Virus record (IMG/VR): IMGVR_UViG_3300018080_000100
Strand: one strand, 5' to 3'
From: a virus
DNA: 64,000 bases
This document shows positions 317 to 51,699 of the stretch, one piece after another (position 1 is the stretch's first letter; each line of letters begins with the position of its first letter). The notes beneath the pieces are model-generated. The model did no database searches, was not told the origin of the DNA, and saw only the letters and a program-made list of their open reading frames with translations. A program made the translations under genes and the position numbers.

Positions 317-895
317 GTGGACATTGGCCTTGGTTGGTTATCGGACTTTGTGCGATGGGTGTCGCGAATCTTCCCGCGCGGCTTACACGTGGATGCCACG
401 CAGGAAGGTGTGATGCTCACGCTCAGTAGAGCGAAGCGCATCAGGCCTGGCTTCCATATCTACTGGCCTCCCATCCAACGGCCGATGGTCCATCCGGTTA
501 AGCGCGACTCTTTCGAAGTCGGCGTGCAGACTCTACCGCACAGATCCGAACGCCCGATTGGCATTTGCATCTCTGTTACTGTAGTCTACACGATTGGCGA
601 CATAATGAAAGCGCTGGTTGACACCTACAACTTCCCGTCGACCATCAAAGACCGAGCGCAGGGCGCTGTCATAGGCGCATGCATCGGCAAGACGATCACC
701 GAACTAGCCGACAATCACCAGAAGATTAACGCGGCGCTAACACGCAGAATGCGTAAGGCGCTCGACAAATACGGCGTCGAAGTGGAAGAGGCATTCATGT
801 CCGACTTCCACCTGTCCAACATGCATCGAGTACACGGCGGCACAACAGTCCTACCGATGGACGCTGCCGAGGAAGAAGAGGAGGAAGAGGAATGA
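317..895 (+). CDS. SPFH/band-7-like protein with poly-Glu C-terminus
   Basis: 192-aa ORF; the central segment resembles stomatin/prohibitin SPFH-domain profiles (…GVEVEEAFMSDFHLS…); terminal EEEEEEEEE run. Confidence 0.4.
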   Translation: MDIGLGWLSDFVRWVSRIFPRGLHVDATQEGVMLTLSRAKRIRPGFHIYWPPIQRPMVHPVKRDSFEVGVQTLPHRSERPIGICISVTVVYTIGDIMKALVDTYNFPSTIKDRAQGAVIGACIGKTITELADNHQKINAALTRRMRKALDKYGVEVEEAFMSDFHLSNMHRVHGGTTVLPMDAAEEEEEEEE

Positions 896-1936: not shown

Positions 1937-2508
1937 TCGCAGTAGCCCTTAGACTTGCCCCAAGCGGCGCAGGTCTTCGACATACTGTTGTTCGCATGAA
2001 ACCAGTCACGCGCCCAATCCCAGTCGTCGTTGACCAGCGTGGCAAAGTCATGCTCGTTGAGTTCGATGACCGTATCAGTGGTCAGCTCCAACATGCGGAT
2101 CACGCGGTCGTAGTCGGCCACATGGTTCGCCGGCGGCCACGCGCGGATGTCCACGCGGATAGCTTTGCCGTCGCGCAGCTTCTGCGCCTCGCCTTCGAGC
2201 TTCTCTGCGGTCTTGGCGCAGAAGCCGGCAAGCGCTTCGTCGCGCATGGTTATATGCTGCTCTCGGTTCTTCCGAACGATATCAAGCAGCTTGTCACGTT
2301 CCATCGTGCATTTGATGTCCAAGGTAAATCTCCGATACGTGTCGAAACGTGCGCGCGCCAGGCCTTGTGTGTTGCCTATCGACCCGCCCATCGTTTCATA
2401 TGCGTAGAATTCCAGCTTGTAGCGCGGCCCCCGAATATACATTTCGGCCGGGAGCCGCGCGCCTGGTATGCTGAATGCGCCGTAGCGATTAGGCGTTGAC
2501 CAGTTCAT
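1933..2508 (-). CDS. hypothetical protein
   Basis: 191-aa ORF whose stop overlaps the start of the downstream gene. Confidence 0.45.
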   Translation of the reverse strand: MNWSTPNRYGAFSIPGARLPAEMYIRGPRYKLEFYAYETMGGSIGNTQGLARARFDTYRRFTLDIKCTMERDKLLDIVRKNREQHITMRDEALAGFCAKTAEKLEGEAQKLRDGKAIRVDIRAWPPANHVADYDRVIRMLELTTDTVIELNEHDFATLVNDDWDWARDWFHANNSMSKTCAAWGKSKGYCE

Positions 2509-4594
2509 TGAACTCGTCTTCGGTCAGGATGGTGACATCCAGTTGCCGCGCCTTAGTCAGCTTGCTGCCGGCATCTGCGCCGGCCACGAGATAGTCGGTC
2601 TTGCCCGAGACACTGCTCGAAGCTTTGCCGCCAGCATCCTTGATGGCTTGTTTGATGCCATCGCGGGTGTAGCCGACGAGCTTGCCAGTCGCGCAGATGT
2701 TCTTGCCGTCCAGCGGACGTGGTCCGGCTGGCACTACCTCTGGCGGGGGATCGCCCATGCCCGTGTTGACGCCCCAGGTACGGAAGTCTTCCAGGAGCTG
2801 TCTGTTCCCGTCATGGGCCAGCCAGTCTTCAAGACTTGCAGCCGTCTCCTTACCTATCCCCTCCAGCTCGCTCAGACTATCTGCGCTCCACGAATTGCCC
2901 AACTCCACAAAAACGTCGACTGGCTTGCCGGCGCGCGCAACCACGGCCTTGCAAATCAGCTCGGAATTGGTCCGCCCGACGTGCTTGATGTTGAGCGACG
3001 CCATCAGGCGCCACGAGGGACGCGTAGCAGCCTCGTCTATGGCCGCCAGGAGCTTTTTCGACTTCCCAGGCGTCAAACCCGGAATGGCCCCAGAATCGGC
3101 GTCTACGGTGTCGTAGAGGCACCATAGATCGGCCAGGCTTGTGAGCAGCCCACCAACTTCGCCGTTGTAATCCTCCGCCATCATCGCCTGGACGGCCTTG
3201 GGACCGAGTCCGTCGATATCCAGGCGGCTGCGGTCGGCAGCTGCGAGGATTACGGCTTCTAGCTGGGCTGGGCAGCCTGCGGTGTTTGTGCAGGACACGA
3301 GGGGACCATCGCGCACGGTGTTGGCCTCGCAGACCGGGCACTTCTCGGGCGGCTTGAACTTCCGCGGCCGTCCGGTGCGCTTGCCCGTGTGTACCCGCAC
3401 CAGGTGGGGTATGATCTTCCCCGCCTTCTCCAGCGTCACAGTGTCCCCGATGCGGGGGTCCAACCGTTCGACCTCGTCGAAGTTGAACAGGGTGCTCTTC
3501 TGTACCGTAGTCTCAGCGATCTCGACGGGCTCGTAGTAGGCGACAGGCGTCAGCGTTCCTTGCTTACCGACCTGCGTCTCGAGCCGTACGATCTTGGTTT
3601 CAGCCTCATATCGCTCCCATTTGTAGGCCATGGCCCACGAAACGTGGCGCGATGAAACAGAGCCCATTGTTTCACGATCGCTGAAACAGTCCAGTTTCAG
3701 CACGATCCCGTCGACCGGAATATCAAGACCGTTGATCACGGCGACCATCTGCTCGATCTGCTTGCGCGCGACTGGATACGTCAGCGGGTTCATAGTCTCG
3801 CAGTTGCTCGGAATGCCCATCAGATGCAGCGCGTACATCGTCTCAACGAATGAGTCGTTGTAGTAGTCCGGATCGAACTGGCCGACGCCATGCGCTATGA
3901 AGTGCAGCTTGCGCTTCCAGCATTCCTTAGGGTCGTGCTGCCGCAATGCGCCCGACGCCGCGTTTCTGGAGTTCTTGAAGGGTTCCTCGCCGGCCTTCTC
4001 CTGCGCGTCCACCAGCGCGGCGAAGGCCGAGTTGGGGATATAGACCTCGCCGCGGACCTCCACGGTGCCGTCAACTTTGATCACATGATCATTTTTCGGC
4101 AGGTCGTCTCGGACGAGGCGTTCCAGCTTGCGCGGGATACCGCGGATCGACATGGCATTGTGGGTGATGTCATCACCCTTCTTGCCGTCGCCGCGGGTCA
4201 CAGCGCGCGTCAGTACACCGTCGACGTAGATCAGGCTGATGGCGCAGCCATCGACCTTCCAGTCGGCGCTATATACCGGGCCTTTCTTGAGCTTATGCGA
4301 CGCACGGACGTGGAACTTGTCCAACGCATCCACGTCAAAACCGTTGTCGATCGAGAGCATCGACACAGCGTGCTTGACGGATTTCAGCCCAGCGATGGGC
4401 TCGCCGCCGACACGTTGCGTGGGACTCTTCGGGTCAGCGAATTCCGGATTCTCGGCTTCCAGACGCTGCAGCTCCTTGAACTGCTTGTCGTAGAACGCAT
4501 CCGAGACGACCGATTCGCTGTATGTGTAGTACATACGGTCCCATTCTGCGATCGCGTCGCGGAGTTCTTCAATCTGTGTCCTTACGTCAGGCAT
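2489..4594 (-). CDS. ligA: NAD-dependent DNA ligase
   Basis: 701 aa; N-terminal Ia domain; adenylation motif KxDG (WKVDGCAISLIYVDG); OB fold; Cys4 zinc finger (CPVCEAN…C…C); HhH region; C-terminal BRCT-like domain. Matches the LigA family throughout. Confidence 0.9.
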   Translation of the reverse strand: MPDVRTQIEELRDAIAEWDRMYYTYSESVVSDAFYDKQFKELQRLEAENPEFADPKSPTQRVGGEPIAGLKSVKHAVSMLSIDNGFDVDALDKFHVRASHKLKKGPVYSADWKVDGCAISLIYVDGVLTRAVTRGDGKKGDDITHNAMSIRGIPRKLERLVRDDLPKNDHVIKVDGTVEVRGEVYIPNSAFAALVDAQEKAGEEPFKNSRNAASGALRQHDPKECWKRKLHFIAHGVGQFDPDYYNDSFVETMYALHLMGIPSNCETMNPLTYPVARKQIEQMVAVINGLDIPVDGIVLKLDCFSDRETMGSVSSRHVSWAMAYKWERYEAETKIVRLETQVGKQGTLTPVAYYEPVEIAETTVQKSTLFNFDEVERLDPRIGDTVTLEKAGKIIPHLVRVHTGKRTGRPRKFKPPEKCPVCEANTVRDGPLVSCTNTAGCPAQLEAVILAAADRSRLDIDGLGPKAVQAMMAEDYNGEVGGLLTSLADLWCLYDTVDADSGAIPGLTPGKSKKLLAAIDEAATRPSWRLMASLNIKHVGRTNSELICKAVVARAGKPVDVFVELGNSWSADSLSELEGIGKETAASLEDWLAHDGNRQLLEDFRTWGVNTGMGDPPPEVVPAGPRPLDGKNICATGKLVGYTRDGIKQAIKDAGGKASSSVSGKTDYLVAGADAGSKLTKARQLDVTILTEDEFNELVNA

Positions 4595-9838: not shown

Positions 9839-9982
9839 CTATAGATAGCAAACCACCATACAAATTACCCAGACCACCAGCAGAGCGATCCAGAACTTCT
9901 TCGTATGTGACCAGACATGACCACAGTATCGTTCGAAGGACTCGAACTTTTCCAGGTCATCACTCTTAGGACCATCCTCCAT
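9839..9982 (-). CDS. small hydrophobic-tail protein
   Basis: Internal ATG (MEDGPK…) with GGAGAG 9 nt upstream; C-terminal TM segment; divergent from the terminase gene. Confidence 0.25.
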   Translation of the reverse strand: MEDGPKSDDLEKFESFERYCGHVWSHTKKFWIALLVVWVICMVVCYL

Positions 9983-11876
9983 GTCTTCTGACTCTCCAGT
10001 CTTCGACGAACCGATTGCGCTAGAAGGACTCCTGGCGCAAGCGAAAACAGTGTTCAATCCCGATGAAAACTCTCGAATAACGTCCACCGACCAGGTGGCC
10101 GCCTACAATAAGCTGTTGCGCACAGGCCAGGTAGATACCCTGGCGCACGCGCTACCGCTTATGTTGAACCTCAAGGGTAATCCGTACACCCTGAACGACC
10201 ACTTTCCTTTCGAGGAAATCTTCCGGTTCCACATGCCGTCGGCGCTGATCTACAAGACCGGCCGGCAGGTGTCCAAATCTACATCTCTGGCAGCGCACGG
10301 CGTCGTTACGTCGATCTCGCTGCCGAACATCACCACGCTGTACGTCATGCCGCTCTTCGAGCAGGTGCGCCGTTTCAGCACGATGTTTGTGCAACCATTC
10401 ATCGACCAATCGCCGGTCAAGAAGCTCTGGACGGGCACGGACACCGTGAACAGCGTGCTCCACCGCAGCTTCCACAACCATTCGAAGATGCTCTTCTCGT
10501 TCGCGTTCCTGAACGCAGACCGTATCCGCGGTATTTCCGCGGACAAGATGGCGGTCGACGAAGTCCAGGACATGAACCACGAGCACATCCCCATTATACG
10601 CGAAACGATGTCGGCAAGCCCGTGGGCCTTCCGACAATTTACCGGAACGCCCAAAACGCTCGACAATACGCTGGAAGCGCTCTGGGGTGAGTCGTCCCAA
10701 GCAGAGTGGTTTGTGCCGTGCATGCACTGCACGACCAACGGCGCGCCGACCTGGAACATCCCCACAATGGAGTTCCACCTGGAGAAGATGATCGGGCCCT
10801 ACCGCCCAGACATCTCCGAGGCGCATCCGGCAACGATCTGCCACAAGTGCGGCAAAGCGATCAGCCCACGCCTCGGCCGGTGGGTGCACAGATACCCTGA
10901 TCGGATTTGGGATCAGGCGGGCTATCACGTGCCGCAGGTCATAATGCCGCTGCACTATGCGAAACCTGACAAGTGGGCAGAACTACTTGCCAAGATGGCC
11001 GGTAAGGGCAACACCCCGCTGAACGTGTTCTTCAACGAAGTGCTGGGCGAATCGTACGATACGGCAGCCAAGCTCGTGACGCTGACCGAGATCGACGCGG
11101 TGTCAAACCTTGGCGAGAACACCATCAACGCAGCGCGCGCCCGCCGGGGTATGTACAGCATGGTTGTGCTGGCAGTCGACTGGGGTGGCGGCGGTGAGAA
11201 GGGCCTGAGCTTCACGACGGCTGCCGTGTTGGGTATGCGCCGAGACGGCACCATCGAGGTCATCTACGGCAAGCGCCTGCTGACGCCACACGACCACCTG
11301 CGCGAGGCTCGAGAGATCAAGCAGCTCTGGGAGATCTTCAAGCCCACGATACTGGCGCACGACTACACAGGCGCCGGTGCGCTCCGCGAGACGTTCCTGA
11401 TCCAGGCTGGTGTGCCCACGCGGGCCACGATGCCTTGCCAGTACGTCCGCTCGGCGTCGCAGCAGCCGTGCTACCACGTGGCGCCTACGCTGCAGCACCC
11501 ACGCTCGCACTACCGCGTTGACAAGAGCCGCTCGCTGTTGCTCACCTGCGCGATGATCAAATGCCGACGGCTCAAGTTCTTCAACAAGGACCACAATAGC
11601 AAGGAAGACCCAGGACTCATCTGGGACTTCTTGGCCCTGGTGGAAGACAAGGTCACCACGATGGCTGCGGGCGAGATCTACCGGATCACGAAGCAGCCGG
11701 GCTTCACCGACGACTTCGCGCAAGCTGTGAACCTGGGATGCGTCGCAATGTGGTATCGCACCCGCAGATGGCCAAAGCTTGACGAGATCGCCGAGTACGC
11801 CATCACGGACGACCAGCTACGCGCGTCGGTGCCGCAGCACGACTCCGACTGGGACGACGAGCTACTGCCAGGCTAG
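9981..11876 (+). CDS. terL: terminase large subunit (ATPase + nuclease)
   Basis: 631 aa; Walker-A-like YKTGRQVSKST; Walker B MAVDEVQDM; C-terminal RNase-H-like nuclease segment (VLAVDWGGGG…); inserted Cys/His cluster (CMHC…CHKC). One of the few plus-strand genes. Confidence 0.55.
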   Translation: MSSDSPVFDEPIALEGLLAQAKTVFNPDENSRITSTDQVAAYNKLLRTGQVDTLAHALPLMLNLKGNPYTLNDHFPFEEIFRFHMPSALIYKTGRQVSKSTSLAAHGVVTSISLPNITTLYVMPLFEQVRRFSTMFVQPFIDQSPVKKLWTGTDTVNSVLHRSFHNHSKMLFSFAFLNADRIRGISADKMAVDEVQDMNHEHIPIIRETMSASPWAFRQFTGTPKTLDNTLEALWGESSQAEWFVPCMHCTTNGAPTWNIPTMEFHLEKMIGPYRPDISEAHPATICHKCGKAISPRLGRWVHRYPDRIWDQAGYHVPQVIMPLHYAKPDKWAELLAKMAGKGNTPLNVFFNEVLGESYDTAAKLVTLTEIDAVSNLGENTINAARARRGMYSMVVLAVDWGGGGEKGLSFTTAAVLGMRRDGTIEVIYGKRLLTPHDHLREAREIKQLWEIFKPTILAHDYTGAGALRETFLIQAGVPTRATMPCQYVRSASQQPCYHVAPTLQHPRSHYRVDKSRSLLLTCAMIKCRRLKFFNKDHNSKEDPGLIWDFLALVEDKVTTMAAGEIYRITKQPGFTDDFAQAVNLGCVAMWYRTRRWPKLDEIAEYAITDDQLRASVPQHDSDWDDELLPG

Positions 11877-12586
11877 TCATCCCATTCCTCGATCCGGTAG
11901 CCAAGGAACTCGAACAGCTGATCGTTGGGCTCCCTGTAGACGTCCGCCAGCCGCTGGCGCATCTTAGCGCGCATAGGCGGATACTTCCGTCGGTAGTTAC
12001 GCGTATGGGGCAGCTTGCACCCAGCCAGCCCAAGCCACGCGAAGACGTCGTTCGTGGTGCGGGCGCTGTCAATACGCATGCGCTCGTTCACGATGATTAG
12101 CTGTTGCTCACGTGGGTAGAATTCCGTGAGTACCTTGAGTTGTTTAGCGTACAGCCCGCGTCGGATACAATCGAGCTCGCCGCGCAGCGTAAGCTCTTTG
12201 TCGACATCCGGCAGCTCTTCGTTGATAAACTCGCGGAACGAACGGCCTTTTGCGCTGCCGCCGCGCCGTGCTAGTTGGTACTGCGAGTAGCACCGATCAA
12301 TCGGGTTACGTAGCACCATGATCAGCTTGACCTGCGGCAGCACTGTATGCATGCGGGCGATGTGCGTCCGGTGCAGCATGTATCCGGGTGTCTTCTCGCC
12401 GCAGACGCGTCCGCGACTGCCGTTGAACTGCCGTACGTACCAGGCTACGCCGCGGTCCCAATGCATATCAAAGAAGTGCAGCTCCTTGCCTGGAAAATAG
12501 ACGGCAGGATGTTGCTGCATATTGGACACCAGCGCGGTGGTGCCGCACTTCTGCGCTCCCGCTATCACAAAGTATGGTAGTTGCAT
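11873..12586 (-). CDS. sulfotransferase-family protein
   Basis: 237 aa; 5'-PSB motif PYFVIAGAQKCGTTAL and a downstream R…S 3'-PB-like region; matches Sulfotransfer_3/Stf0-like families. Confidence 0.6.
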   Translation of the reverse strand: MQLPYFVIAGAQKCGTTALVSNMQQHPAVYFPGKELHFFDMHWDRGVAWYVRQFNGSRGRVCGEKTPGYMLHRTHIARMHTVLPQVKLIMVLRNPIDRCYSQYQLARRGGSAKGRSFREFINEELPDVDKELTLRGELDCIRRGLYAKQLKVLTEFYPREQQLIIVNERMRIDSARTTNDVFAWLGLAGCKLPHTRNYRRKYPPMRAKMRQRLADVYREPNDQLFEFLGYRIEEWDD

Positions 12587-12648
12587 AGCTACTCCTGGTT
12601 AAGGTCCGCCATGATCGTTGCACGCGCATAGGTACCTCCTTATGCATG

Positions 12649-12669
12649 AAAAAAGCCCCTTTCGGGGCT
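12649..12669 (-). terminator. rho-independent terminator
   Basis: GC hairpin AGCCCC-TTTC-GGGGCT followed, on the minus strand, by TTTTTT; lies downstream of the tRNA array. Confidence 0.55.
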
Positions 12670-12670
12670 A

Positions 12671-12744
12671 GGTGGCTGGAGGGATTTGAACCCTGCTCCT
12701 TCAGCGCCACAAGCTGACGTGCTGCCTGGTACACCACAGCCACA
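12671..12744 (-). tRNA. tRNA-His (anticodon GTG), extra 5' G
   Basis: Hand-folded cloverleaf: acceptor GTGGCTG/CAGCCAC, T-loop TTCAAAT, anticodon loop TTGTGGC. Confidence 0.7.
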
Positions 12745-12745
12745 G

Positions 12746-12816
12746 TGGCCCCACTAGGAATCGAACCTAGACCTGACGGTTAAGAGCCGCCTGCTCGACC
12801 TTCGAGCTACGGAGCC
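12746..12816 (-). tRNA. tRNA-Lys (CTT)
   Basis: Cloverleaf with T-arm CTAGG-TTCGATT-CCTAG and anticodon loop CTCTTAA. Confidence 0.65.
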
Positions 12817-12838
12817 AATTTTGTTCATATGATCAAGA

Positions 12839-12909
12839 TCCGCCACACGGAGTTGAACCGTGTCCTCCGGCTTACCATGCCGGGCTCGTACCAGTCCGAG
12901 CTCTGGCGG
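12839..12909 (-). tRNA. tRNA-Thr (GGT)
   Basis: T-arm CACGG-TTCAACT-CCGTG; anticodon arm CCGGC-ATGGTAA-GCCGG. Confidence 0.6.
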
Positions 12910-12923
12910 AAAACAGCCCTAAG

Positions 12924-12994
12924 ATCCGAGGGCAGGAATCGAACCCGCACCTGCTGAGTACGAAACAGCTGTTCTGCCGTTAAACTACCCCGGA
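12924..12994 (-). tRNA. tRNA-Thr (CGT)
   Basis: Acceptor TCCGGGG/CCTCGGA; T-loop TTCGATT; anticodon loop TTCGTAC. Confidence 0.55.
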
Positions 12995-13122
12995 TCATCA
13001 GCGGAAGAGTATCCAAAACATGCCCAACACCACGATCCCAACAATGACATCGCGCGCTACGTCAGGCCAGGTGGTGGCCTCCGCAAGCAACATTTCCATG
13101 ACAAACCTCCTTTGTTAGTCAG

Positions 13123-13193
13123 TGGTCCCACTAGGAATCGAACCTAGACCCGCTGCTTAAAAGGCAGCAGCTCGACCTTCGAGCTATAGGACC
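13123..13193 (-). tRNA. tRNA-Lys (TTT)
   Basis: Paralog of the CTT tRNA; anticodon arm GCTGC-CTTTTAA-GCAGC. Confidence 0.65.
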
Positions 13194-13198
13194 GTAAG

Positions 13199-13276
13199 TA
13201 GCGGTGGACGGATTCGAACCGCATCTTCCGCAGGGGCTACCCACGGCGCTCTACCTGACGACTACCGACCCCGCAG
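13199..13276 (-). tRNA. tRNA-like element (isotype unresolved, possibly degenerate)
   Basis: Good T-loop GGTTCGAATCC, but acceptor and anticodon pairing could not be completed by hand. Confidence 0.3.
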
Positions 13277-13437
13277 CCCGTGGATGTGACGTCACCATCC
13301 GGGACCCGATCGCGCAGACGAATGTTCACGCCCTCGACGTGTACTTTGTCTCAGACGCTTCATTTGAGCTACACCGCCATAAGACGGCCGCTAGGACCAC
13401 ATCTTTCCTGAATGCGTTATTTCAGCACGCAGCCAAG

Positions 13438-13509
13438 TCGCTCCGCTCGGGGTCGAACCGAGACCACTGGATCATGACTCCAGCACACTGCCAATTATGT
13501 TACGGAGCA
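13438..13509 (-). tRNA. tRNA-Met (CAT)
   Basis: Anticodon arm CTGGA-GTCATGA-TCCAG; T-arm CTCGG-TTCGACC-CCGAG. Confidence 0.6.
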
Positions 13510-13510
13510 G

Positions 13511-13580
13511 TCGGATGCCTGGGTTTCGAACCCAGCTCGGGGGCCTTATAAGAGTCCCCTAGGTCCCAAGCCTGCATCCA
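13511..13580 (-). tRNA. tRNA-like element with non-canonical anticodon arm
   Basis: Acceptor TGGATGC/GCATCCG and T-arm CTGGG-TTCGAAA-CCCAG are fine, but the anticodon region is a GGGG/CCCC stem with a 12-nt loop. Confidence 0.35.
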
Positions 13581-14129
13581 TCATAGCTTCACAGCCCAAG
13601 TCGTGTCCTCGAATACGTCGACGCGGTCCGCGAATTCCCTATCTACTGCTTTCATCACGCCACGGAAGCGCTTGTCGTAGTCATGCCCGGCGATGAACCG
13701 CGTGCAATGCGGCAGCCACAGCTTGATTTGCCGTGACACAGCTGCGTCCGTATGCACAGCGTCGATGTACACGCCGTCGACCTTACCGATGAACGGTTCA
13801 ACGTCCATGTCGAAGGCGTTTATCAGCATGACGTTACGCTGATTGTACGTGTTCTTGTGGGCTTGCGCATGCGCCCAGCGCATGTCGCGCGGATGCATCT
13901 CCGCACCGACACAGTCGCCAAGCGTTTTGTCGATTGTTAGTTCCCACGGATCGACGCCGAGCACGTAGTCGAAATACTTGGCGTGGACTAGTGTGCTTTC
14001 GCCCTGCCATACGCCCAATTCGACCAATGTTCCACCGCCGTACTTACGGCCAAACGCGTGCAGGCCTTCCGTTAGGCCGGGCGCGGCGCGCATGCACAAT
14101 CTAGGATCGTCGAGCTTGTTCTTTGTCAT
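13581..14129 (-). CDS. class I SAM-dependent methyltransferase-like protein
   Basis: 182 aa; motif-I-like LVELGVWQGEST and acidic motif II; found within the sugar-modification cluster. Confidence 0.45.
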   Translation of the reverse strand: MTKNKLDDPRLCMRAAPGLTEGLHAFGRKYGGGTLVELGVWQGESTLVHAKYFDYVLGVDPWELTIDKTLGDCVGAEMHPRDMRWAHAQAHKNTYNQRNVMLINAFDMDVEPFIGKVDGVYIDAVHTDAAVSRQIKLWLPHCTRFIAGHDYDKRFRGVMKAVDREFADRVDVFEDTTWAVKL

Positions 14130-14141
14130 TTGTTCCTCCAG

Positions 14142-14215
14142 TAGGCGATGCAGGACTTGAACCTGCCGCCTCCACCGTGTCGAGGTGGCGCTCTGGCCTG
14201 ATGAGCTAATCGCCT
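14142..14215 (-). tRNA. tRNA (anticodon GAC, Val) - tentative
   Basis: Acceptor AGGCGAT/ATCGCCT; D-arm GCTC…GAGC; T-loop TTCAAGT; anticodon loop TCGACAC has an unusual C33. Confidence 0.45.
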
Positions 14216-14318
14216 GCGGATCCGGTAGGGGCTTGCCCGGGGCGGGGCCCCTAGGCCGGACTTCGAACCCGTATTATCGCTCCTCCATTCCCCTAGTTGT
14301 TAAGGAGTCCCGGATCAG
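14216..14318 (-). other. tRNA-like remnant (T-arm-like GGGTTCGAAGTCC without a closable acceptor stem)
   Basis: A T-loop motif is present but no cloverleaf could be closed; possible pseudo-tRNA or long-arm tRNA that was not resolved. Confidence 0.2.
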
Positions 14319-14392
14319 TCTGGGTAGCAAGATTTGAACTTGCGTCCTCGCGGTCCCGAACCGCGCGCTCTGCCAGGCTGAGCTACACCCAG
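14319..14392 (-). tRNA. tRNA-Pro (CGG)
   Basis: Anticodon arm CGCGG-TTCGGGA-CCGCG; T-arm GCAAG-TTCAAAT-CTTGC. Confidence 0.65.
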
Positions 14393-14393
14393 A

Positions 14394-14984
14394 TTACAAT
14401 TCTTGTATGCGTTCCTGCTTGAGCCACTTGCGTAGCAGCGCTTGCTCGGAATGCGCGTCGTGTCCTTTGAAGTTCGCATTGTACCCGAAGCAGGCGATCT
14501 TTATCGTCCAGTACGTGTACGCCGGATTGTCGACCAACCACTTCAAGATCCAAACGCCCGCGCTCGGATTCACGTTCTGCTCTACACCGAAGTTGCGTTT
14601 GTATCGCCGTACCCACGCGCAATGGCGCCTGTCAACGAATTCTACGCGCGATTCTTTGAGCGCCGGATAGCGTTTGAAGAACGGACAAAGGTCCATCTTG
14701 GTTAACTGGCTAGGCCGGAGCTTTTCGCGCTGTGACGGCATAATCCACAGATGCGGCTGCGCTTTCACGACTTCTGGGACGAGCCTAAGGCGCCCCATCG
14801 CTATCAACTCTCCATGGCCTTTCGCTGCACCACGTAGCGCCAGGTGTGTCGTACGTTTGCCGATCAGCCCGGTCTCGTAGAACGGTGTCGTCTGGAAGCG
14901 CGCAACAGCGTCCGCCGCATCTATAGCTGCGGACATGTCTTCGGACGGCTTGCTGTTGCCGACTACGACGATGGTTTTTGACAT
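14394..14984 (-). CDS. GT42/Maf-like nonulosonic-acid (sialyl) transferase, paralog 1
   Basis: 196 aa; N-terminal IVVVGNSKPS (compare CstII VIIAGNGPS); C-terminal KGHDAHSEQALLRKWL (compare CstII IGHSKNTDIKALEFL, catalytic His); sits beside the CMP-NulO synthetase. Confidence 0.5.
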   Translation of the reverse strand: MSKTIVVVGNSKPSEDMSAAIDAADAVARFQTTPFYETGLIGKRTTHLALRGAAKGHGELIAMGRLRLVPEVVKAQPHLWIMPSQREKLRPSQLTKMDLCPFFKRYPALKESRVEFVDRRHCAWVRRYKRNFGVEQNVNPSAGVWILKWLVDNPAYTYWTIKIACFGYNANFKGHDAHSEQALLRKWLKQERIQEL

Positions 14985-15628
14985 AATCCGGCTCCAACGT
15001 GCTCCGCAAGCTCCCAGTCAGCCTCGGTGTCAATGTCGACCAGTTCGGTGCCGCGCACTTCTTGGAACCATGGATGGAAACCGATGCGCCGTCCGTGCTC
15101 ACGCATGAAAGTGCGCCGAAGAATCCAGAAGCCATCCGACTCAATGAAGATCGGCGCTTGCGTTTGCGTCGGCGGACATGTACGTGGGTCGTGGTTGATT
15201 GACTGGTAGTGGCAGTTCCACAGACGTCCGCGGACGGCTTGCATGCTGGCGGCCGAATCAAAACCGCTAGCGATGACAGCATTCATGGCGGTGCGGATAC
15301 TGTCCACGCGAATGAACGGCGACGTCGCGTTCTTGATGCAGCACCACGTCGCTTTCTCTGGAACGGCCGCCAGCATATCGCGAAACATTCTGTTGCTGTC
15401 CTGTATCTCCATGACGGTCCGCTCGGGATACAGCACGACGTCGGACGGGACGTGATCCATGATGGCGGGTTCGCCGTAGACGCCGATCTCGTCGATAAGA
15501 CCCTCTTCACGCAGCTGGCGTAGCGGTTCCAGCGTCCATTCGTACAGCGGGCGTCCGCACAGTTCGCGGAAGTTCTTGCCGGGCACACGCTCGCTGCGCA
15601 TCTTCAGGGGTGTGACAGCTATTCGCAT
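14963..15628 (-). CDS. acylneuraminate (nonulosonic acid) cytidylyltransferase, CMP-NeuAc synthetase family
   Basis: 221 aa; IAVTPLKMRSERVPGKNFRELCGRPLYEWT matches the CTP_transf_3 P-loop (IIPARGGSKGIPxKN…L.GKPL); the …TSPF… motif is also conserved. Confidence 0.65.
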   Translation of the reverse strand: MRIAVTPLKMRSERVPGKNFRELCGRPLYEWTLEPLRQLREEGLIDEIGVYGEPAIMDHVPSDVVLYPERTVMEIQDSNRMFRDMLAAVPEKATWCCIKNATSPFIRVDSIRTAMNAVIASGFDSAASMQAVRGRLWNCHYQSINHDPRTCPPTQTQAPIFIESDGFWILRRTFMREHGRRIGFHPWFQEVRGTELVDIDTEADWELAEHVGAGLCQKPSS

Positions 15629-16254
15629 GGTATGTCTCCCATGTTACCGATCGGGTGCAACCGGCCGCCACGCACCCAACGTTTCAGCAGCTCACGCTCC
15701 AGGCCTTCTGGATGATGACCGCGAAAACCGCCCGTGAAGCCGGTAACCTGTATGGTATACTCTGCAAACTCCGTTTGCGATAGCAGCCATTGTAGCACCC
15801 ATAAGCCGCCCGTTGGCTCCACATGGCCTTTGAAGCGCCGTCGCCTCCAAAAGTATGCTTTCAGCGCCGTACGTGCTGACATATCCACGAAGCGTATCGG
15901 CAGCTCGCTCATCTGCGGATAACGTGCGAAGAAGGGCGCAACCTCGACGTGATGCAGATTGCACCACGACAACTTACGCGGCGCATGCATGCCCCAGCCG
16001 TCGCTGCGCATGACCCACAGCTCTGGTCTGGCAGCTAGTGCCTCCTGCGATAGGGGCAGCTTGCCTGTACTCAGATCTTTGCCAGTCCCTGTCGAGGCGC
16101 CGCGGAATGCCAACGCCGTTGTCTTAGTGCCGGTCAGCCCTAACGGGTAGTAGAAAGCCATCTGGAAGCGTACGACTTCGTCAGCGTCGTCGATGATCTC
16201 CGACAGGTCGACAGTCGGCTCAGCGTTTCCGACGACTACCATAGTCTTGGCCAT
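15619..16254 (-). CDS. GT42/Maf-like nonulosonic-acid transferase, paralog 2
   Basis: Start refined to ATG (MAKTMVVVGN) with GGAGG 5 nt upstream; C-terminal GHHPEGLERELLKRW; ~30% identical to paralog 1. Confidence 0.5.
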   Translation of the reverse strand: MAKTMVVVGNAEPTVDLSEIIDDADEVVRFQMAFYYPLGLTGTKTTALAFRGASTGTGKDLSTGKLPLSQEALAARPELWVMRSDGWGMHAPRKLSWCNLHHVEVAPFFARYPQMSELPIRFVDMSARTALKAYFWRRRRFKGHVEPTGGLWVLQWLLSQTEFAEYTIQVTGFTGGFRGHHPEGLERELLKRWVRGGRLHPIGNMGDIPCE

Positions 16255-16271
16255 GACGCCTCCGTGCGAGT

Positions 16272-16345
16272 GCGCGCAGTCAGGATTCGAACCTGCATTT
16301 CTCCGTTGGCTACACTTAGGTTCCGGCAGCGCTACCTTTCCCGTT
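16272..16345 (-). tRNA. tRNA-like element (unresolved)
   Basis: T-loop CAGGTTCGAATCCTG present; acceptor pairing not found by hand. Confidence 0.25.
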
Positions 16346-16387
16346 CTCGCCCGCGGTTGACTGTCCAATCAGCCTATACGCGCGAAG

Positions 16388-16461
16388 TCTAAGTGGCAGG
16401 ATTCGAACCTGCGGCCTTCTGGCCCCCAGCCAGACGCTCTACCAGACTGAGCTACACTCAG
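16388..16461 (-). tRNA. tRNA-Pro (GGG)
   Basis: Acceptor CTGAGTG/CACTTAG; anticodon arm TCTGG-CTGGGGG-CCAGA. Confidence 0.6.
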
Positions 16462-17078
16462 ATTAGCCAATCGTTTTCATCCTGCATACGCTGGATTTTC
16501 TTGGTCTGCTTGATATGCCAGTTGTAGTGGCACATATAGCGATTCTCGCTCAGCTGACTGTTCAGCTGGTACCACCCAGACGGGTACATCAGCGGGTCCA
16601 GCATGACCATGTCCACGACATCAGGCTCTTTCCGCAACCTGTGCTGGATACGCATCTGATCGTCGCAGTATTGGCGGCGCCGGCGGTACTTAGGCAGGTT
16701 CGCAGGGTCCAGCAGGTCCAGCGTCGCTGGCGTCGGTGCCGCGGCGAAGAATCCTGCGCACACCTTGTTGTCGCCGTCCGGACAGTCACGTTGGAAGACG
16801 ATGTCGTGGCCTTCAAGCGTGCGCTCCAAATCCTTACGCGGATCACGGCGGAAAACGACGTCGACGTCGGTCCAGATGACGACCTCGCCTTTCAGAAGCT
16901 CCTTGCGTACGAGCCTGACCTTCTGCATCATCATCTGTTCGAACAGCTCGGTACCGTACGGCTCGCCGTGCACCTGCATATCGTGGATCTCGATGCCAAC
17001 GCCGATGCGCTTCAACGACGCGAGCATGTTTTGCACCAGCGGACCCACTCTTTCGGTGCACATCGAAATCAATTTCAT
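16458..17078 (-). CDS. nucleotide-diphospho-sugar glycosyltransferase (GT-A-like, DxD)
   Basis: Start refined to MKLISM… just before the tRNA; WTDVDVVF DxD motif; resembles Nucleotid_trans/GT77-like viral glycosyltransferases. Confidence 0.45.
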   Translation of the reverse strand: MKLISMCTERVGPLVQNMLASLKRIGVGIEIHDMQVHGEPYGTELFEQMMMQKVRLVRKELLKGEVVIWTDVDVVFRRDPRKDLERTLEGHDIVFQRDCPDGDNKVCAGFFAAAPTPATLDLLDPANLPKYRRRRQYCDDQMRIQHRLRKEPDVVDMVMLDPLMYPSGWYQLNSQLSENRYMCHYNWHIKQTKKIQRMQDENDWLI

Positions 17079-17085
17079 AGGTGAA

Positions 17086-17157
17086 GTACCCTCGGTAGGA
17101 TTCGAACCCACGTGGAACGGTGTAGAAAACCGTGGCCTATCCTCTAGGCTACGAGGG
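17086..17157 (-). tRNA. tRNA-Arg (TCT)
   Basis: Anticodon arm ACGGT-TTTCTAC-ACCGT; T-loop TTCGAAT. Confidence 0.65.
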
Positions 17158-17167
17158 CATTATATCA

Positions 17168-17239
17168 GTCACCCCACCAGGAGTCGAACCTGGGCCTGCG
17201 GCTTCGGAGGCCGCCGTCTTGTCCTCTCGACTATGGGGT
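17168..17239 (-). tRNA. tRNA-Arg (CCG)
   Basis: Anticodon arm GCGGC-CTCCGAA-GCCGC; T-arm CCAGG-TTCGACT-CCTGG. Confidence 0.6.
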
Positions 17240-17367
17240 GTGAACGCGACGGCCCGGACCTCTATTTCAGTACGGCCTGGGATCATTGCGGGTGTCTAAG
17301 GTTACGCCGTCGAGTGCGTGACGAAACGACGACTCCCACTCCAGTACGTCACGATACTCCGCCGCGA

Positions 17368-17440
17368 GCAGCCCCGGCAGGATTCGAACCTGCATTAACC
17401 TGGCTTAGGACACCAGTGCCTTTCCGTTAGGCGGCGGGAC
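17368..17440 (-). tRNA. tRNA-Arg (CCT)
   Basis: Acceptor AGTCCCG/CGGGGCT; anticodon arm CTGGT-GTCCTAA-GCCAG. Confidence 0.6.
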
Positions 17441-17448
17441 TGAGGCCG

Positions 17449-18663: not shown

Positions 18664-19407
18664 TTACTCTTGATCGCTGTATTGTATCGGTTCCTCGGGG
18701 CACGTACAGGGATGCGCGTCTCGGATTGCGCTTGCCGACGAGTTCTTCTGACAATCAGCATTGCGAGGATCATGCCGCTTCGGGATGAACGTAACTCTGT
18801 CACACGTGCATGGCTTGAGCGTGCCATGCGACAACGCCTTAGCGCCGTTCCAGGGACAATCCTCGTTATCAGGGTTGTGATTCTGGATGTACGCGTTCGG
18901 CAGCGCTGCGACCGGCGTTACCTTAGGGCACGTGCAGCCGGCTGGTTTGTCCTCCGTTGCAGAGTTCCACAGGCAGTCCGGGTTGTCCGGATCGTGGATG
19001 CGCCCGTCGGTGCCGATCGTCCGCGGTTGTACGTCGCCCGGCCACTCCCACACAAAGTTCTGTGTGAATCCGCCATGCGTCTTGCGCTTCATGGCTGCAG
19101 CTTGCTCAGGATCGAGATAGCGGTGCCACTGTTGCCCTACGTAGCGTAACGCCTCGTAGACGTCGCCGATCTCGCGCTCGATAGCCTTGAACACTTCGGC
19201 ACGTTTCGGATCCAAGTCTTGTCGTACAGGCAAGCGCTGGTACTCGCGAATGGCGTCCAGCAACTCTTGCGCCTCTTCGACTACCTTCTCTGCGCCGAGC
19301 AGCTGTCTGCTCTCGCCGGGTGGAATCTGCCGGATCGTTCCGTTGAGCGGACCCTCGCCGGCTAGTCGTCTACCGGGCACAAAGTCCCGGACCAGTTTGC
19401 TTCCCAT
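18664..19407 (-). CDS. MazG/HisE-like NTP pyrophosphohydrolase domain protein with C-terminal Cys-repeat region
   Basis: N-terminal ~90 aa resemble all-alpha NTP-PPase; C-terminus has three repeats of DP(D/R)N(P/A)DC…CTC(P/D). Confidence 0.4.
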   Translation of the reverse strand: MGSKLVRDFVPGRRLAGEGPLNGTIRQIPPGESRQLLGAEKVVEEAQELLDAIREYQRLPVRQDLDPKRAEVFKAIEREIGDVYEALRYVGQQWHRYLDPEQAAAMKRKTHGGFTQNFVWEWPGDVQPRTIGTDGRIHDPDNPDCLWNSATEDKPAGCTCPKVTPVAALPNAYIQNHNPDNEDCPWNGAKALSHGTLKPCTCDRVTFIPKRHDPRNADCQKNSSASAIRDAHPCTCPEEPIQYSDQE

Positions 19408-40331: not shown

Positions 40332-40994
40332 TTAGACGGGCGTCTCGGTGATCCGGTTGGGCGCATTTTCTGGCCCGCGCGGTTCCATCGAGGCTTCGAT
40401 CTGCGCCACGTCGACGCGGTTGTCGTTGCCTGCGAAGGTCATCAGGTACGCGAGGATCTGTTGGTACAGACCGTAAACGCGCAGCGAGTCGTGTCGGGTG
40501 ATGAACCGCGAACGCTCGCGCGAGTTGAGTCGCGTCCAGGTTACGATCACTGTGTCGACGGCCGACAACAGGATCCGGCCGTTGCCGCTCATGTTGAGCT
40601 GGCTGTTCACCGGGATGTCGACGTCCTGGCCCGAGAAGTCCCAAGGGAGTTGGTACATCTGCGTGGCCGGCATCTGGATGTCGTCGCCACCAAACGGATT
40701 GGCAGCATCGGTGATGTCCGCAGTTGCGTCGATCGCCGTAGCGATCTTGTCGCCGAGATCAGCACCGTCTGGGTTATGAGTAACCCGGCGACGCCAGCGA
40801 TCAGCGTTGACAAGCAGCTGCAGAAAATGGTCTCTCGACGGGTCGTCGAGACCGCCTCGGTCGCGGAGATCTTCACTGTGGACAATCTCCGAGCGCAGCA
40901 ACATCAACGGCTGCAGACCGGCGGCGATGTGATGGTTTCGGCATTCCGTGATTACGTTACGGAATTGTTCGACGCCAGGGTCACCTACTGGCAT
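40332..40994 (-). CDS. hypothetical protein
   Basis: 220-aa ORF. Confidence 0.4.
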   Translation of the reverse strand: MPVGDPGVEQFRNVITECRNHHIAAGLQPLMLLRSEIVHSEDLRDRGGLDDPSRDHFLQLLVNADRWRRRVTHNPDGADLGDKIATAIDATADITDAANPFGGDDIQMPATQMYQLPWDFSGQDVDIPVNSQLNMSGNGRILLSAVDTVIVTWTRLNSRERSRFITRHDSLRVYGLYQQILAYLMTFAGNDNRVDVAQIEASMEPRGPENAPNRITETPV

Positions 40995-42754: not shown

Positions 42755-42973
42755 CGGGGACTCCTTTGCTGAGAGACGTGCATATTCTCTCATCAGACAC
42801 CGACGGAGTGGCGCTGTCAAGATCCTTGGGAAGTGGTAGCCCTGTGAGTCGAACACAGCACAGCGCGGTTATCAGCCGTGCTTGGGCAACCGGCCCTCGA
42901 CTACCATGGCCCTGGGCCCGGAGGCCCAGGGAGGACTTTCCATTATTTGGGATTGTCCGTTTCTCGTCCAGAC

Positions 42974-50760: not shown

Positions 50761-51699
50761 TTACTGAGTCGCGGGCGCGTGTCGAATGGTTTCGATCGAC
50801 TCCCGCATCATAGCGGTGTTCATCGTGGCCTGGTTGATCGCCTCGTAAGGCATAATGAAGACCACGTTGTTCTCGCCCTTGGCCATTTCGGTGGAGACGT
50901 TTTCCATCACCTCCATCTGGCGCCACGATAAGTACGATGGCGTCAGCGACTTGGCCAAGATACCGTTTTCGTCCGCCTGGGCTTGCGCCCGGATCATACG
51001 GACTTTTGCCAATTCCGTTTCTATTCCGGCCCGCCGTTGTGCTTCCGCCATTTCGGCCTCAGCCAGGGCTGCCTTCCGTTGATCTTCCAGCTCGGCATTC
51101 TTGATAGCGTTCCGTTGCTGGATAACGACCGGCGGATAGTCGATGTTGGAGACCAACACCGCCGATACGTTCAGCGGGTACTTCAGCGCGGTCAGTCGTT
51201 TGCGTACGTCCGCCGATAGATCCGCCTCGATCTTCAATCTGTTAGGCCGGATGTCATCGGTTTCGTACGTGCTAACGATATTGCGCGTTGACGATCGAAT
51301 GATGTCCCGAACGGTCATCTCGTAGAACTTGTCCAGAGACAGCTCGTGTCCGGCTACCTCAGAGCCGTCTGCTGTCTTAATCGCCGGAACTTTCTCCTTG
51401 ATGAACTCGATCGAATCTTTGTCGACCTGGAACGACAGCACGGCCTTCGTGTCGACGTCCATGTTGATATCGTCCGTACAGAGAATCTTCAGCGTCTCCT
51501 TGTACGACTTCAACTTCTGGTCAACGAAGTACAGCCGATCGCGGCCGTAGGCCTTGTACACGCCCTCGCTGACGATGGTGCTCTCACCGCTTGGGTGGAG
51601 GATGATCACCTTCTTTCCAGGAGGCACGACGCTTCCCATGCACCCGGTCAGTGTCATCACGAAACACGCCAACAAGCTAATCAGAATCAACCTCTTCAT
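50761..51699 (-). CDS. SPFH/band-7 family lipoprotein
   Basis: 312 aa; lipobox MTLTGC; SPFH-like core; C-terminal Ala/Glu coiled coil (AALAEAEMAEAQRRA). Confidence 0.5.
   Translation of the reverse strand: MKRLILISLLACFVMTLTGCMGSVVPPGKKVIILHPSGESTIVSEGVYKAYGRDRLYFVDQKLKSYKETLKILCTDDINMDVDTKAVLSFQVDKDSIEFIKEKVPAIKTADGSEVAGHELSLDKFYEMTVRDIIRSSTRNIVSTYETDDIRPNRLKIEADLSADVRKRLTALKYPLNVSAVLVSNIDYPPVVIQQRNAIKNAELEDQRKAALAEAEMAEAQRRAGIETELAKVRMIRAQAQADENGILAKSLTPSYLSWRQMEVMENVSTEMAKGENNVVFIMPYEAINQATMNTAMMRESIETIRHAPATQ

Follow-up and report, generated by a model that had tools for sequence, protein, structure and literature searches.

Organisation of the locus

The window analysed here is the whole stretch of 64,000 nucleotides (nt) of the IMG/VR virus record IMGVR_UViG_3300018080_000100, with a G+C content of ~58%. 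On its minus strand it carries a set of six genes that appears to form a module for the activation and transfer of a nonulosonic acid (i.e. a sialic-acid-like sugar): a cytidylyltransferase, two paralogous putative transferases (A and B), a GT-A glycosyltransferase, a methyltransferase and a sulfotransferase (Table 1). Such a module had been proposed from the letters of the sequence and its open reading frames (ORFs) only (hereafter the sequence-only reading). The six ORFs were found at or close to where that reading had placed them, with a coding-type pattern of G+C at the codon positions (GC1/GC2/GC3), and the same gene calls are given on the public contigs that carry the sequence. The genes are therefore real and the functional idea is supported, while both the family label of the two transferases and the likely sugar had to be corrected.

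From upstream to downstream, three tRNA-Arg genes are followed by the GT-A gene, tRNA-Pro(ggg), the gene for B, the synthetase gene, the gene for A, tRNA-Pro(cgg), tRNA-Val, the methyltransferase gene, six further tRNAs and the sulfotransferase gene, which is convergent with the GpA-type large terminase gene and ends 4 nt inside it. The module is thus interleaved with the tRNAs of an array of 39, all on the minus strand and spread over 12.6-44 kb (ARAGORN), in line with the earlier description of a module embedded in a tRNA array. The gene for B overlaps the synthetase gene by 10 nt and the latter overlaps the gene for A by 22 nt, so that B, synthetase and A form one translationally coupled unit. 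A longer, TTG-started ORF for B reaching 16368 is not supported, as the start of the 211-residue form is the one called on the public contigs and fits the N-termini of the family. A scan of the region for promoters and terminators gave nothing better than shuffled sequence.

Table 1. Features of the module and of the surrounding window (positions of the 64,000-nt window, except where another locus is named)
Feature	Position	Strand	Basis or remark
PAPS-dependent carbohydrate-type sulfotransferase, 237 aa	11873..12586	-	Pfam; PSB/PB motifs
Six tRNAs: His-gtg, Lys-ctt, Thr-ggt, Thr-cgt, Lys-ttt, Met-cat	12671..13509	-	ARAGORN; Rfam RF00005 for 5/6 (without Thr-ggt)
Class I SAM methyltransferase, Methyltransf_24/TylF-like O-methyltransferase type, 182 aa	13581..14129	-	Pfam PF13578
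tRNA-Val(gac)	14141-14215	-	ARAGORN, Rfam
tRNA-Pro(cgg), directly downstream of A with tRNA-Val(gac)	14318-14392	-	ARAGORN, Rfam
GT29-like 'mini' sialyltransferase-family protein A, 196 aa	14394..14984	-	start overlaps synthetase gene
CMP-nonulosonic acid synthetase, 221 aa, probable Kdn-type pocket	14963..15628	-	CTP_transf_3; clade profile
GT29-like 'mini' sialyltransferase-family protein B, 211 aa	15619..16254	-	end overlaps synthetase start
tRNA-like 16-mer upstream of B	16281-16296	-	T arm of tRNA-Pro(ggg)
tRNA-Pro(ggg), between GT-A gene and B	16387..16461	-	ARAGORN; Rfam 67.8 bits; 4-nt overlap with GT-A stop codon
GT-A nucleotide-diphospho-sugar transferase (PF03407, GT77-like), DVD motif, 206 aa	16458..17078	-	Pfam 4e-16
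Three tRNA-Arg (tct, ccg, cct), upstream border of the module	17086..17441	-	ARAGORN, Rfam
NodZ-like (GT23-type) fucosyltransferase homologue, same tRNA array	33008..34084	-	Pfam NodZ PF05830 2e-12
Radical-SAM enzyme, no assignable subfamily	34123..34908	-	Pfam Radical_SAM 1.1e-13
GpA-type large terminase	9981-11876	+	
Membrane-protein candidate, 242 aa	17449-18177	-	hydropathy
NAD-dependent DNA ligase with BRCT domain; trypsin-like peptidase-domain protein (623 aa); MazG-like protein (also in L006)	among 2489-4594, 40985-42856 and 18664-19407	-	
Vault-protein-like protein, 845 aa	29126-31663	-	shoulder domain 7e-23; vault repeat 3.6e-9
SPFH/Band_7 protein	317-895	+	
SPFH/Band_7 protein	50761-51699	-	
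GP88/DUF7227 protein	52916-53587	-	
Fused GT29-like/synthetase ORFs	L034 2879-4771; L036 2906-4327; L038 5705-8440; L039 2449-4125		IMG/VR

The CMP-nonulosonic acid synthetase and its likely substrate

The sequence-only reading assigned the central gene to the CMP-N-acetylneuraminic acid (CMP-Neu5Ac; CMP, cytidine monophosphate) synthetase family, and this assignment held. By itself the protein matches CTP_transf_3 (1.4e-7, 32 bits against a cut-off of 22.6), and a profile of its clade, made of 12 phage sequences that are 31-63% identical to the window protein, matches solved CMP-sialic acid synthetases (CMAS) over their full length, with E values from 8e-29 to 4e-10. The best of these matches is PpNeuA (9t4z; 7.9e-29, positions 2-211 of PpNeuA), followed by mouse CMAS (4e-22), another NeuA (1.5e-15), Neisseria meningitidis CMAS (3e-14) and Vibrio CMAS (4e-10), whereas KdsB enzymes are matched over the N-terminal half only, at 8e-9 or weaker. 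The P-loop (S12-x-R14-x-P-G-K18-N19) and the DID motif of the Mg-binding type are conserved: S12, R14, K18, N19, T102, P104 and, of DID, D198 and I199 are invariant in the clade, the first Asp of DID is kept in 10 of its 12 members, and these residues align with the motifs of CMAS. Three other readings of the gene were rejected, namely PseF (TIGR03584; 33.6 bits against a cut-off of 205.7), KdsB (13.8 bits against a subfamily cut-off of 193, in addition to the N-terminal-half coverage) and IspD (ruled out on scores and coverage).

The pocket of the enzyme points away from Neu5Ac. PpNeuA is the synthetase of Prymnesium parvum that is specific for 2-keto-3-deoxynononic acid (Kdn); its Arg196 gate-keeps Kdn versus Neu5Ac, the R196L exchange switches the preference from Kdn to Neu5Ac, and the position is hydrophobic in Neu5Ac- and pseudaminic acid (Pse)-specific enzymes (PMC12934254). 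In both pairwise and profile alignments, R181 of the phage enzyme (within HGRRIG) falls opposite this Arg196 (chain residue R214), at a position that is Leu in mouse CMAS and one of the N-acetyl-pocket Phe residues in N. meningitidis CMAS. R181 never varies in the clade, and nearly all viral relatives collected have it as well. Furthermore, the conserved Gln (Gln110 of PpNeuA), through which Neu5Ac-specific enzymes contact O8 and the acetamido nitrogen, is replaced by Asn in the phage enzyme, and in most of the other viral relatives, the more distant ones, by His. Because the gate-keeper Arg is present and the conserved Gln is missing, the substrate is probably a nonulosonic acid with a hydroxyl at C5, for which Kdn is the obvious candidate, while Neu5Ac, Pse and legionaminic acid (Leg) are less likely. 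In other respects PpNeuA shares the CTP and metal motifs with the phage synthetase at ~25-28% identity and, unlike it, is membrane-anchored in its native form.

Family and fold of the flanking paralogues

A and B are paralogues, as had been claimed (37% identity, E 4e-47), and in a neighbour-joining tree they group together with the orthologues from related phages outside, which fits a duplication within this phage lineage. The accompanying assignment to GT42/Maf did not stand. Taken singly, A and B find no match in Pfam (E <= 0.1), NCBIfam, PHROG or the sequences of the PDB; a word-seeded homologue search with A returned a near-identical copy only, and a scan of IMG/VR with the two-sequence alignment of A and B returned nothing. 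An exhaustive HMMER search with the same alignment against 1.84 billion cluster representatives yielded 105 relatives, 79 of which made up the family alignment. Pfam Glyco_transf_29 (PF00777) is matched by 29 of these 79 (best 3.3e-8), and the Pfam models of GT42 or MptE/Maf by none of them and by neither paralogue. The family profile matches pig ST3Gal-I at 5e-11 over a stretch that spans sialylmotifs L and S and the motif III His, followed by ST6Gal1 (7e-8), ST6GalNAc2 (2e-5) and ST8Sia3 (2e-4); against CstII it reaches an E value of 0.9 only, over residues 1-51 only. With the 79-homologue alignment AlphaFold gave a confident model (predicted local distance difference test, pLDDT, 94.8; predicted template modelling score 0.91), whereas a model from the two paralogues alone (pLDDT 44) was discarded. 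The predicted fold is the GT-A variant-2 sialyltransferase fold, closest to GT29 structures and not to GT42/Maf. On the missing Pfam matches, the CstII result and the fold comparison, the GT42/Maf assignment was rejected. Profiles placing the two genes outside GT42/Maf were an outcome that the sequence-only reading, together with a non-sugar nucleotidyltransferase family for 14963..15628, had named beforehand as counting against it; this outcome bears on the label and leaves the function standing.

The GN and catalytic-His motifs on which the GT42 label had been based are present, but they correspond to sialylmotif L and to the His of what looks like a fused III/VS motif. Sialylmotif L of A reads VVVGNS...MSAAIDAADAVARFQ and sialylmotif S reads PSAGVW...CFG, B having the same, and both align with motifs L and S of ST3Gal-I (reference VVGN...ID..D.V.R.N and P[ST].G......GF). 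Throughout the family only two positions are invariant, the motif-L Arg (R29) and a His (H175) whose GH-x4-E element immediately precedes the C-terminal helix; hardly any variation is seen at G9, N10, G143 and E180, and A and B keep all of these residues. Instead of separate motifs III (HYWE) and VS (HxxxxE) there is one invariant His, which HMMER pairs with the His of HYWE and whose spacing to E180 and the terminal helix we take to fit motif VS. Traits of the eukaryotic type are missing, as there is neither a membrane segment nor a Cys at the positions of the motif L/S disulfide. Profile matches, fold model and kept motifs therefore identify A and B, as predicted from sequence and model, as short, soluble, bacterial-type GT29-like enzymes.

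The first report of bacterial GT29-like sequences, by Petit et al. in 2018, described them mostly from alpha-proteobacteria and without membrane anchor and conserved cysteines, and proposed them as likely ancestors of the eukaryotic sialyltransferases (PMC5811610). A profile built around the phage proteins retrieves such bacterial sequences at 1e-28 to 1e-58, again concentrated in the alpha-proteobacteria; some of those from Aureimonas and Methylobacterium bear the NCBI name 'glycosyltransferase family 29 protein'. Relatives by fold in BFVD include an uncharacterised protein of Myoviridae and one that carries the automatic annotation 'Glycosyl transferase family 29 [uncultured Caudovirales phage]'.

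Recurrence of the gene pair in other viruses

The synthetase and a GT29-like gene occur together well beyond the window. The closest case is a contig of a metagenome-assembled genome (L006) from a related phage with a terminase 84% and a synthetase 54% identical to those of the window. There the order is PF03407 gene (38% identical and directly upstream of the synthetase), synthetase and a single GT29-like gene (hhalign E 1.6e-28), adjoining the terminase gene and lying inside a tRNA array. The short contig of the nearest GT29-like relative (L001) opens with the end of a synthetase gene (53% identical). In a second lineage (L007-L009; synthetase 37-38% identical, GT29-like gene hhalign E 2.9e-26) the order is GT29-like gene, synthetase and GP88, with a sulfotransferase a few genes further, again inside a tRNA array; the homologue of GP88 is the only other one shared with the window. 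The tRNA-array location thus recurs in two lineages (L006 1775-6454; L007 103-9428 and L008 367-8217) that share almost no other genes. In L010 (an unrelated phage locus) and L011, by contrast, the module is larger, free of tRNAs and made up, in this order, of an aminotransferase, a small cytidylyltransferase, a sulfotransferase, LicD, a methyltransferase, the synthetase, a GT29-like gene, TylF/Methyltransf_24, a GT1 enzyme and an ATP-grasp protein. Near the pair in L010/L011, and in 12 of 12 IMG/VR loci tested, there is no tRNA.

A scan of IMG/VR with the synthetase profile gave 33 loci, in which GT29-like ORFs were sought by local hidden Markov model (HMM) search. Both genes are present in 7 of these loci and abut in 6, and in four further contigs they are fused into a single ORF with an N-terminal GT29-like and a C-terminal synthetase domain (Table 1). 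A possible fifth fusion (L037) has GT29 domain scores below threshold (domain E 0.18 and 0.97). PF00777 itself is reached by four of the GT29-like ORFs from five of the IMG/VR loci. Gene fusion, combined with conserved adjacency in distant lineages, is strong contextual evidence that this glycosyltransferase family uses the product of this synthetase clade. Sulfotransferases (L008 and L010), Methyltransf_24 (L010) and PF03407 (L006) are found with the pair elsewhere as well; because the sulfotransferase and Methyltransf_24/TylF repeatedly accompany the pair, they are treated here as parts of one pathway. The proposal of a nonulosonic acid activation and transfer module is thus upheld by the synthetase homologue, the sialyltransferase fold and motifs, the recurrence and the fusions.

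Two side observations concern these relatives. Immediately downstream of the synthetase, L007-L009 encode a homologue (L007 10724-11320) of the window's GP88/DUF7227 protein with 49% identity; this protein may be a further partner of the module. In L010 (1589-16155; ENA ERZ27256847 k141_395959), DNA polymerase III alpha is split into a gene for its N-terminal part (PHP and DNA_pol3_alpha domains) and a finger-domain gene ~10.7 kb apart, with the whole glycan module in between.

Accessory enzymes and source of the sugar acid

The other enzymes were recovered much as the sequence-only reading had described them. The sulfotransferase, which had been recognised by its 5'-phosphosulfate-binding (5'-PSB) motif for 3'-phosphoadenosine 5'-phosphosulfate (PAPS), matches Sulfotransfer_1 (PF00685, 1.2e-13) and Sulfotransfer_3 (PF13469, 2.8e-12), and has a 5'-PSB motif (KCGTT) at residue 13 and a 3'-phosphate-binding (3'-PB) motif (RNPIDRCYS) at residue 93. 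Its nearest solved relatives are heparan sulfate glucosamine 3-O-sulfotransferases (9e-23), which makes it carbohydrate-directed. The S-adenosylmethionine (SAM) methyltransferase matches PF13578 at 4.7e-9 (37.5 bits against a cut-off of 26.3) and carries SAM motif I as VELGVWQG. For the GT-A enzyme, expected to have a DxD motif, the match is to PF03407 (Nucleotid_trans; 60.1 bits against a cut-off of 22), with DVD at residue 71, and no solved relative was found by sequence. Further along, at 33-35 kb, the fucosyltransferase-like and radical-SAM enzymes were also confirmed; all NCBIfam equivalog scores of the radical-SAM enzyme were far below their cut-offs. The NodZ-like fucosyltransferase homologue may belong to the same glycan pathway.

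As the sequence-only reading had stated for the window, no NeuB-type synthase was found: among the 58 ORFs of the window, and in ~9 kb beyond each of its ends, there is no NeuB/SAF synthase, aldolase, epimerase or sugar-nucleotide pathway enzyme. The free sugar acid would then come either from the host, a hypothetical supply, or from phage genes elsewhere in the genome. In five IMG/VR loci (L019, L022, L025, L027 and L029), 4 of the 85 scanned ORFs match HpcH/HpaI aldolase, and the same loci hold many methyltransferases and sugar-nucleotide enzymes; in those viruses a pyruvate aldolase could provide an alternative route to a 2-keto-3-deoxy sugar acid.

Proposed pathway and its acceptor

What is observed are the family and fold of each enzyme, the conserved catalytic motifs, the gene overlaps, and the recurrence and fusion of the pair; from these we infer a donor, an order of steps and an acceptor. 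The module would be a phage-encoded, cytoplasmic set of glycan-building and glycan-tailoring enzymes, in which the synthetase would join CTP to a nine-carbon 2-keto-3-deoxy sugar acid in its free form; judged from the pocket, Kdn or another 5-hydroxy acid is the most probable one. The two soluble GT29-type transferases would subsequently move this sugar from its CMP donor, with the invariant His as the base, and A and B might serve two different acceptors or make two different linkages. The GT-A enzyme would add a neutral sugar from a nucleoside diphosphate sugar (the NodZ-like enzyme may do likewise), the heparan-sulfate-3-O-sulfotransferase-like enzyme would add sulfate from PAPS, and the Methyltransf_24 enzyme an O-methyl group, so that the product would be an acidic, sulfated, methylated glycan.

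None of the module enzymes has a 19-residue window above 1.6 on the Kyte-Doolittle scale (i.e. there are no hydrophobic segments), and with all enzymes soluble the acceptor should be cytoplasmic or at the inner face of the membrane. The acceptor that we favour is the phage's own structural (virion) proteins, which would be glycosylated in the cytoplasm before or during assembly; the enzymology as proposed, combined with this acceptor, is held tentatively, with somewhat less than even confidence. We prefer the virion for two reasons, the precedent set by other viruses and a genome of lytic-type character, and to that extent the argument is one by analogy. Viruses that glycosylate their own capsids by several encoded enzymes are established among the chloroviruses, the mimiviruses and some mycobacteriophages, and conversion of the host surface is typical of temperate phages, while the present phage, which is large and has a tRNA set of its own, seems to be of the lytic type. 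Both in the window and in L006 the module adjoins the terminase gene, which is counted in favour of a virion target. The most specific form of the proposal, in which the two GT29 enzymes cap a fucosylated, sulfated and methylated glycan on virion proteins with Kdn or a related acid, would make this the first bacterial virus with a functional sialylation-type pathway; in this form the proposal is rather doubtful.

Several points weigh against virion glycosylation by this pathway. A and B miss the Pfam threshold for GT29 on their own sequence, their fold is also used by the pyrophosphokinases MptE and TPK, and their motif L has RFQ where most relatives and the eukaryotic GT29 enzymes have RFN or RxN. 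No paper was found in the literature that gives a function or biochemistry to a bacterial or phage GT29-like protein, or that deals with a phage GT29 at all. The assignment of Kdn depends on a single gate-keeper residue that has been characterised in one enzyme, and a synthase for the sugar acid is absent from the inspected sequence, i.e. the window plus ~9 kb beyond each end, together ~82 kb of a 226.5-kb contig. The genes of cellular relatives are found in contexts of an unrelated kind (in Rhizobiales, for instance, in the urease operon), because of which the family may not be uniformly one of glycosyltransferases. Finally, the surroundings of one cellular relative, among genes for glycosyltransferases of the lipopolysaccharide (LPS) core, and a GT9 gene on the phage contig itself favour a target in the envelope.

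Following this last point, the same enzymology could act on a glycan of the host envelope, be it LPS core or O-antigen, capsule, a teichulosonic-acid-like polymer, the S-layer or flagellin, through which the phage would cap or alter its own receptor, blocking superinfection or sparing its progeny from being lost on debris. The cellular GT29-like relative in question (P0005) lies beside GT9 heptosyltransferase, GT1 and Gly_transf_sug genes, the GT9-family protein of the phage contig has 667 residues, a candidate membrane protein adjoins the module, and the combination of a NodZ-like enzyme, a sulfotransferase and a methyltransferase recalls the decoration of rhizobial surfaces and Nod factors. 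The concentration of bacterial GT29-like genes in the alpha-proteobacteria (PMC5811610) points the same way. On the other hand, the inspected sequence shows no flippase, polymerase, undecaprenyl-phosphate-linked initiating transferase or acyltransferase, nor does it contain an integrase or any other gene for lysogeny. Modules for classical seroconversion are a trait of temperate phages. That the enzymes have no membrane anchors also speaks against an envelope target, albeit weakly, because peripheral membrane glycosyltransferases lack them too. Altogether we regard an envelope acceptor as unlikely, but as the first alternative to consider.

That the paralogues are not glycosyltransferases, but use a Rossmann-like fold for a pyrophosphokinase-type or nucleotide-binding role in a different pathway, is improbable. 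The missing direct Pfam match and the fold held in common with pyrophosphokinases would agree with it, as would the rhizobial homologues inside urease operons: the relatives in Ensifer and Sinorhizobium are named 'Urease operon accessory protein', and on the chromosome of Rhizobium rosettiformans the relative (L013/L014 8001-8651) lies between ureB and ureC. However, where the family profile matches GT29, sialylmotifs L and S and the His motif all fall into register, the motif-L Arg and the catalytic-type His are exactly the residues that never vary in the family, and in four viral ORFs the domain is fused to a CMP-sugar synthetase domain.

Slightly more improbable still is a role in hypermodification of the phage's DNA, in which an ulosonic acid, with or without sugars, sulfate and methyl groups, would be placed on hydroxymethylated pyrimidines for evasion of host nucleases. 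Large phages often modify their own DNA. According to a preprint, reconstituted phage clusters glycosylate 5-hydroxymethylcytosine (5hmC) with diverse sugars, including an ulosonic acid assigned as 3-deoxy-D-manno-octulosonic acid (Kdo), and one such cluster used a cytidylyltransferase (bioRxiv 10.1101/2023.12.21.572611). Like the present module, these clusters bring together glycosyltransferases and sugar-nucleotide enzymes, but they have a cytosine methyltransferase and a 5mYOX/TET enzyme as their anchor; in the section consulted, the one DNA glycosyltransferase with a described fold is GT-B and T4 beta-GT-like, with no GT29 type mentioned. Neither a cytosine methyltransferase nor a TET/5mYOX enzyme, nor a thymidylate-synthase-like hydroxymethylase, was found in the 58 window ORFs and the two flanks, which weighs against hypermodification, and the sulfotransferase is of a glycan-directed type. 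A glycan on RNA, for instance on the phage's own tRNAs, can hardly be credited: it would explain why the module lies within tRNA arrays here, in L006 and in the L007-L009 lineage, which is otherwise unrelated, and an RNA-binding Ro60/TROVE protein is encoded on the same contig, but the module has no RNA-binding domain, the array also holds many unrelated accessory genes, and 14 other loci, in which the pair has no tRNA close to it, make a functional link between module and tRNAs unlikely.

Comparison with known systems and implications

Virion glycosylation by a multi-enzyme set has its closest parallels in the glycans of chlorovirus capsids, mimivirus fibrils and mycobacteriophage capsids and tails, where several viral glycosyltransferases together with sugar-activating and tailoring enzymes act in the cytoplasm on the virus's own structural proteins. 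To our knowledge none of these systems pairs a CMP-nonulosonic acid synthetase with GT29-type transferases and a PAPS sulfotransferase.

Of the transferases themselves, the nearest known ones are the bacterial GT29-like homologues (PMC5811610), which like the phage proteins are soluble, of ~200-215 residues, with motifs L and S plus the His and with neither stem nor disulfide Cys. They are chromosomal and alpha-proteobacterial, some in urease operons, and the phage copies are 20-30% identical to them; unlike these homologues, the phage copies are duplicated and translationally coupled to a CMP-sugar synthetase. Compared with mammalian GT29 enzymes (ST3Gal-I 2wml/2wnf, ST6GalNAc2, ST6Gal1 and ST8Sia3) the phage proteins are ~100 residues shorter at 14-19% identity, lack membrane anchor, stem and conserved cysteines, have RFQ in place of RxN, and carry a merged III/VS-type GHxxxxE with one His where the mammalian enzymes have separate HYWE and HxxxxE. 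With the GT42 enzymes CstI and CstII and with Maf (MAF_flag10/MptE-like) they have in common the GT-A variant-2 fold class, an N-terminal GN motif and a catalytic His, and the use of CMP-nonulosonic acid donors by GT42/Maf resembles what is predicted for the phage transferases.

All components come from known families, and databases already contain phage GT29-like proteins under automatic annotation, so that the system is not new in kind. What is undescribed is the arrangement, i.e. a recurrent phage-borne module of synthetase, GT29 and sulfotransferase. Here and in several other viral contigs such GT29-like proteins are coupled or fused to a CMP-nonulosonic acid synthetase; no contextual argument to date speaks more strongly for bacterial GT29-like proteins being CMP-sugar transferases, and as the module supplies small soluble candidates, the function of bacterial GT29 proteins becomes directly testable. 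The module also indicates that uncultured large phages build complex acidic, sulfated glycans, a capacity absent at BLAST sensitivity from 50,697 deposited phage genomes, in which tblastn with the synthetase or with paralogue A gave no match and against which a megablast of the region likewise found none. The module is thereby of relevance to the chemistry of virion surfaces, to host recognition and to the enzyme toolbox for the synthesis of Kdn and sialosides. If virion proteins are indeed sialylated in this way, it would be the first function assigned to bacterial or phage GT29 proteins, in a family until now tied to sialylation in the eukaryotic Golgi, and the compact soluble enzymes would bear on the proposed bacterial origin of eukaryotic sialyltransferases.

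The phage genome and its tRNA array

The exact synthetase protein is also encoded by a metagenomic contig of 226,517 bp (ENA ERZ27256796 k141_2629452), because of which the window is taken to be part of a very large uncultured phage; shorter contigs from other ENA and Joint Genome Institute samples carry the identical protein as well. Among known terminases, that of the window has distant relatives only (identity at most about 33%). Other window genes encode an NAD-dependent ligase and an AAA ATPase, many further ORFs belong to no family, and the flanks of ~9 kb on each side encode, among others, NDK and NT5C. Past the high-coordinate end of the window, on the same contig, lie the genes for a 580-residue Ro60/TROVE protein with a vWA domain (L048 6988-8730) and for the GT9 (heptosyltransferase-family) protein (L048 3498-5501). 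A Ro60 homologue is notable beside a 39-tRNA array, and the GT9 gene could share the glycan pathway of the module.

Accessory genes in or near the tRNA array include those for the trypsin-like peptidase-domain protein, the NAD-dependent DNA ligase and the MazG-like protein. Because it holds so many unrelated accessory genes, the array looks like a plastic insertion zone. The protein encoded just upstream of the module, with the three tRNA-Arg genes in between, has no family match; 27 of its windows exceed 1.6 on the Kyte-Doolittle scale, suggesting several membrane spans, and the gene is kept on the phage's other contigs. Just upstream of the gene for B, the 16-mer gcaggttcgaatcctg is identical in sequence to the T arm of tRNA-Pro(ggg) next to it. 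No tRNA is called at this place by ARAGORN or by Rfam (E <= 1), and the 16-mer may be the remnant of a tRNA copy from the insertion of the second paralogue. Among the tRNAs that ARAGORN calls in L006 and L007 there are some whose anticodon loop is irregular (attt in L006, tc in L007). Lastly, the window encodes a protein with the shoulder domain and a repeat of the major vault protein, which is unusual for a phage, besides two further SPFH/Band_7 proteins.

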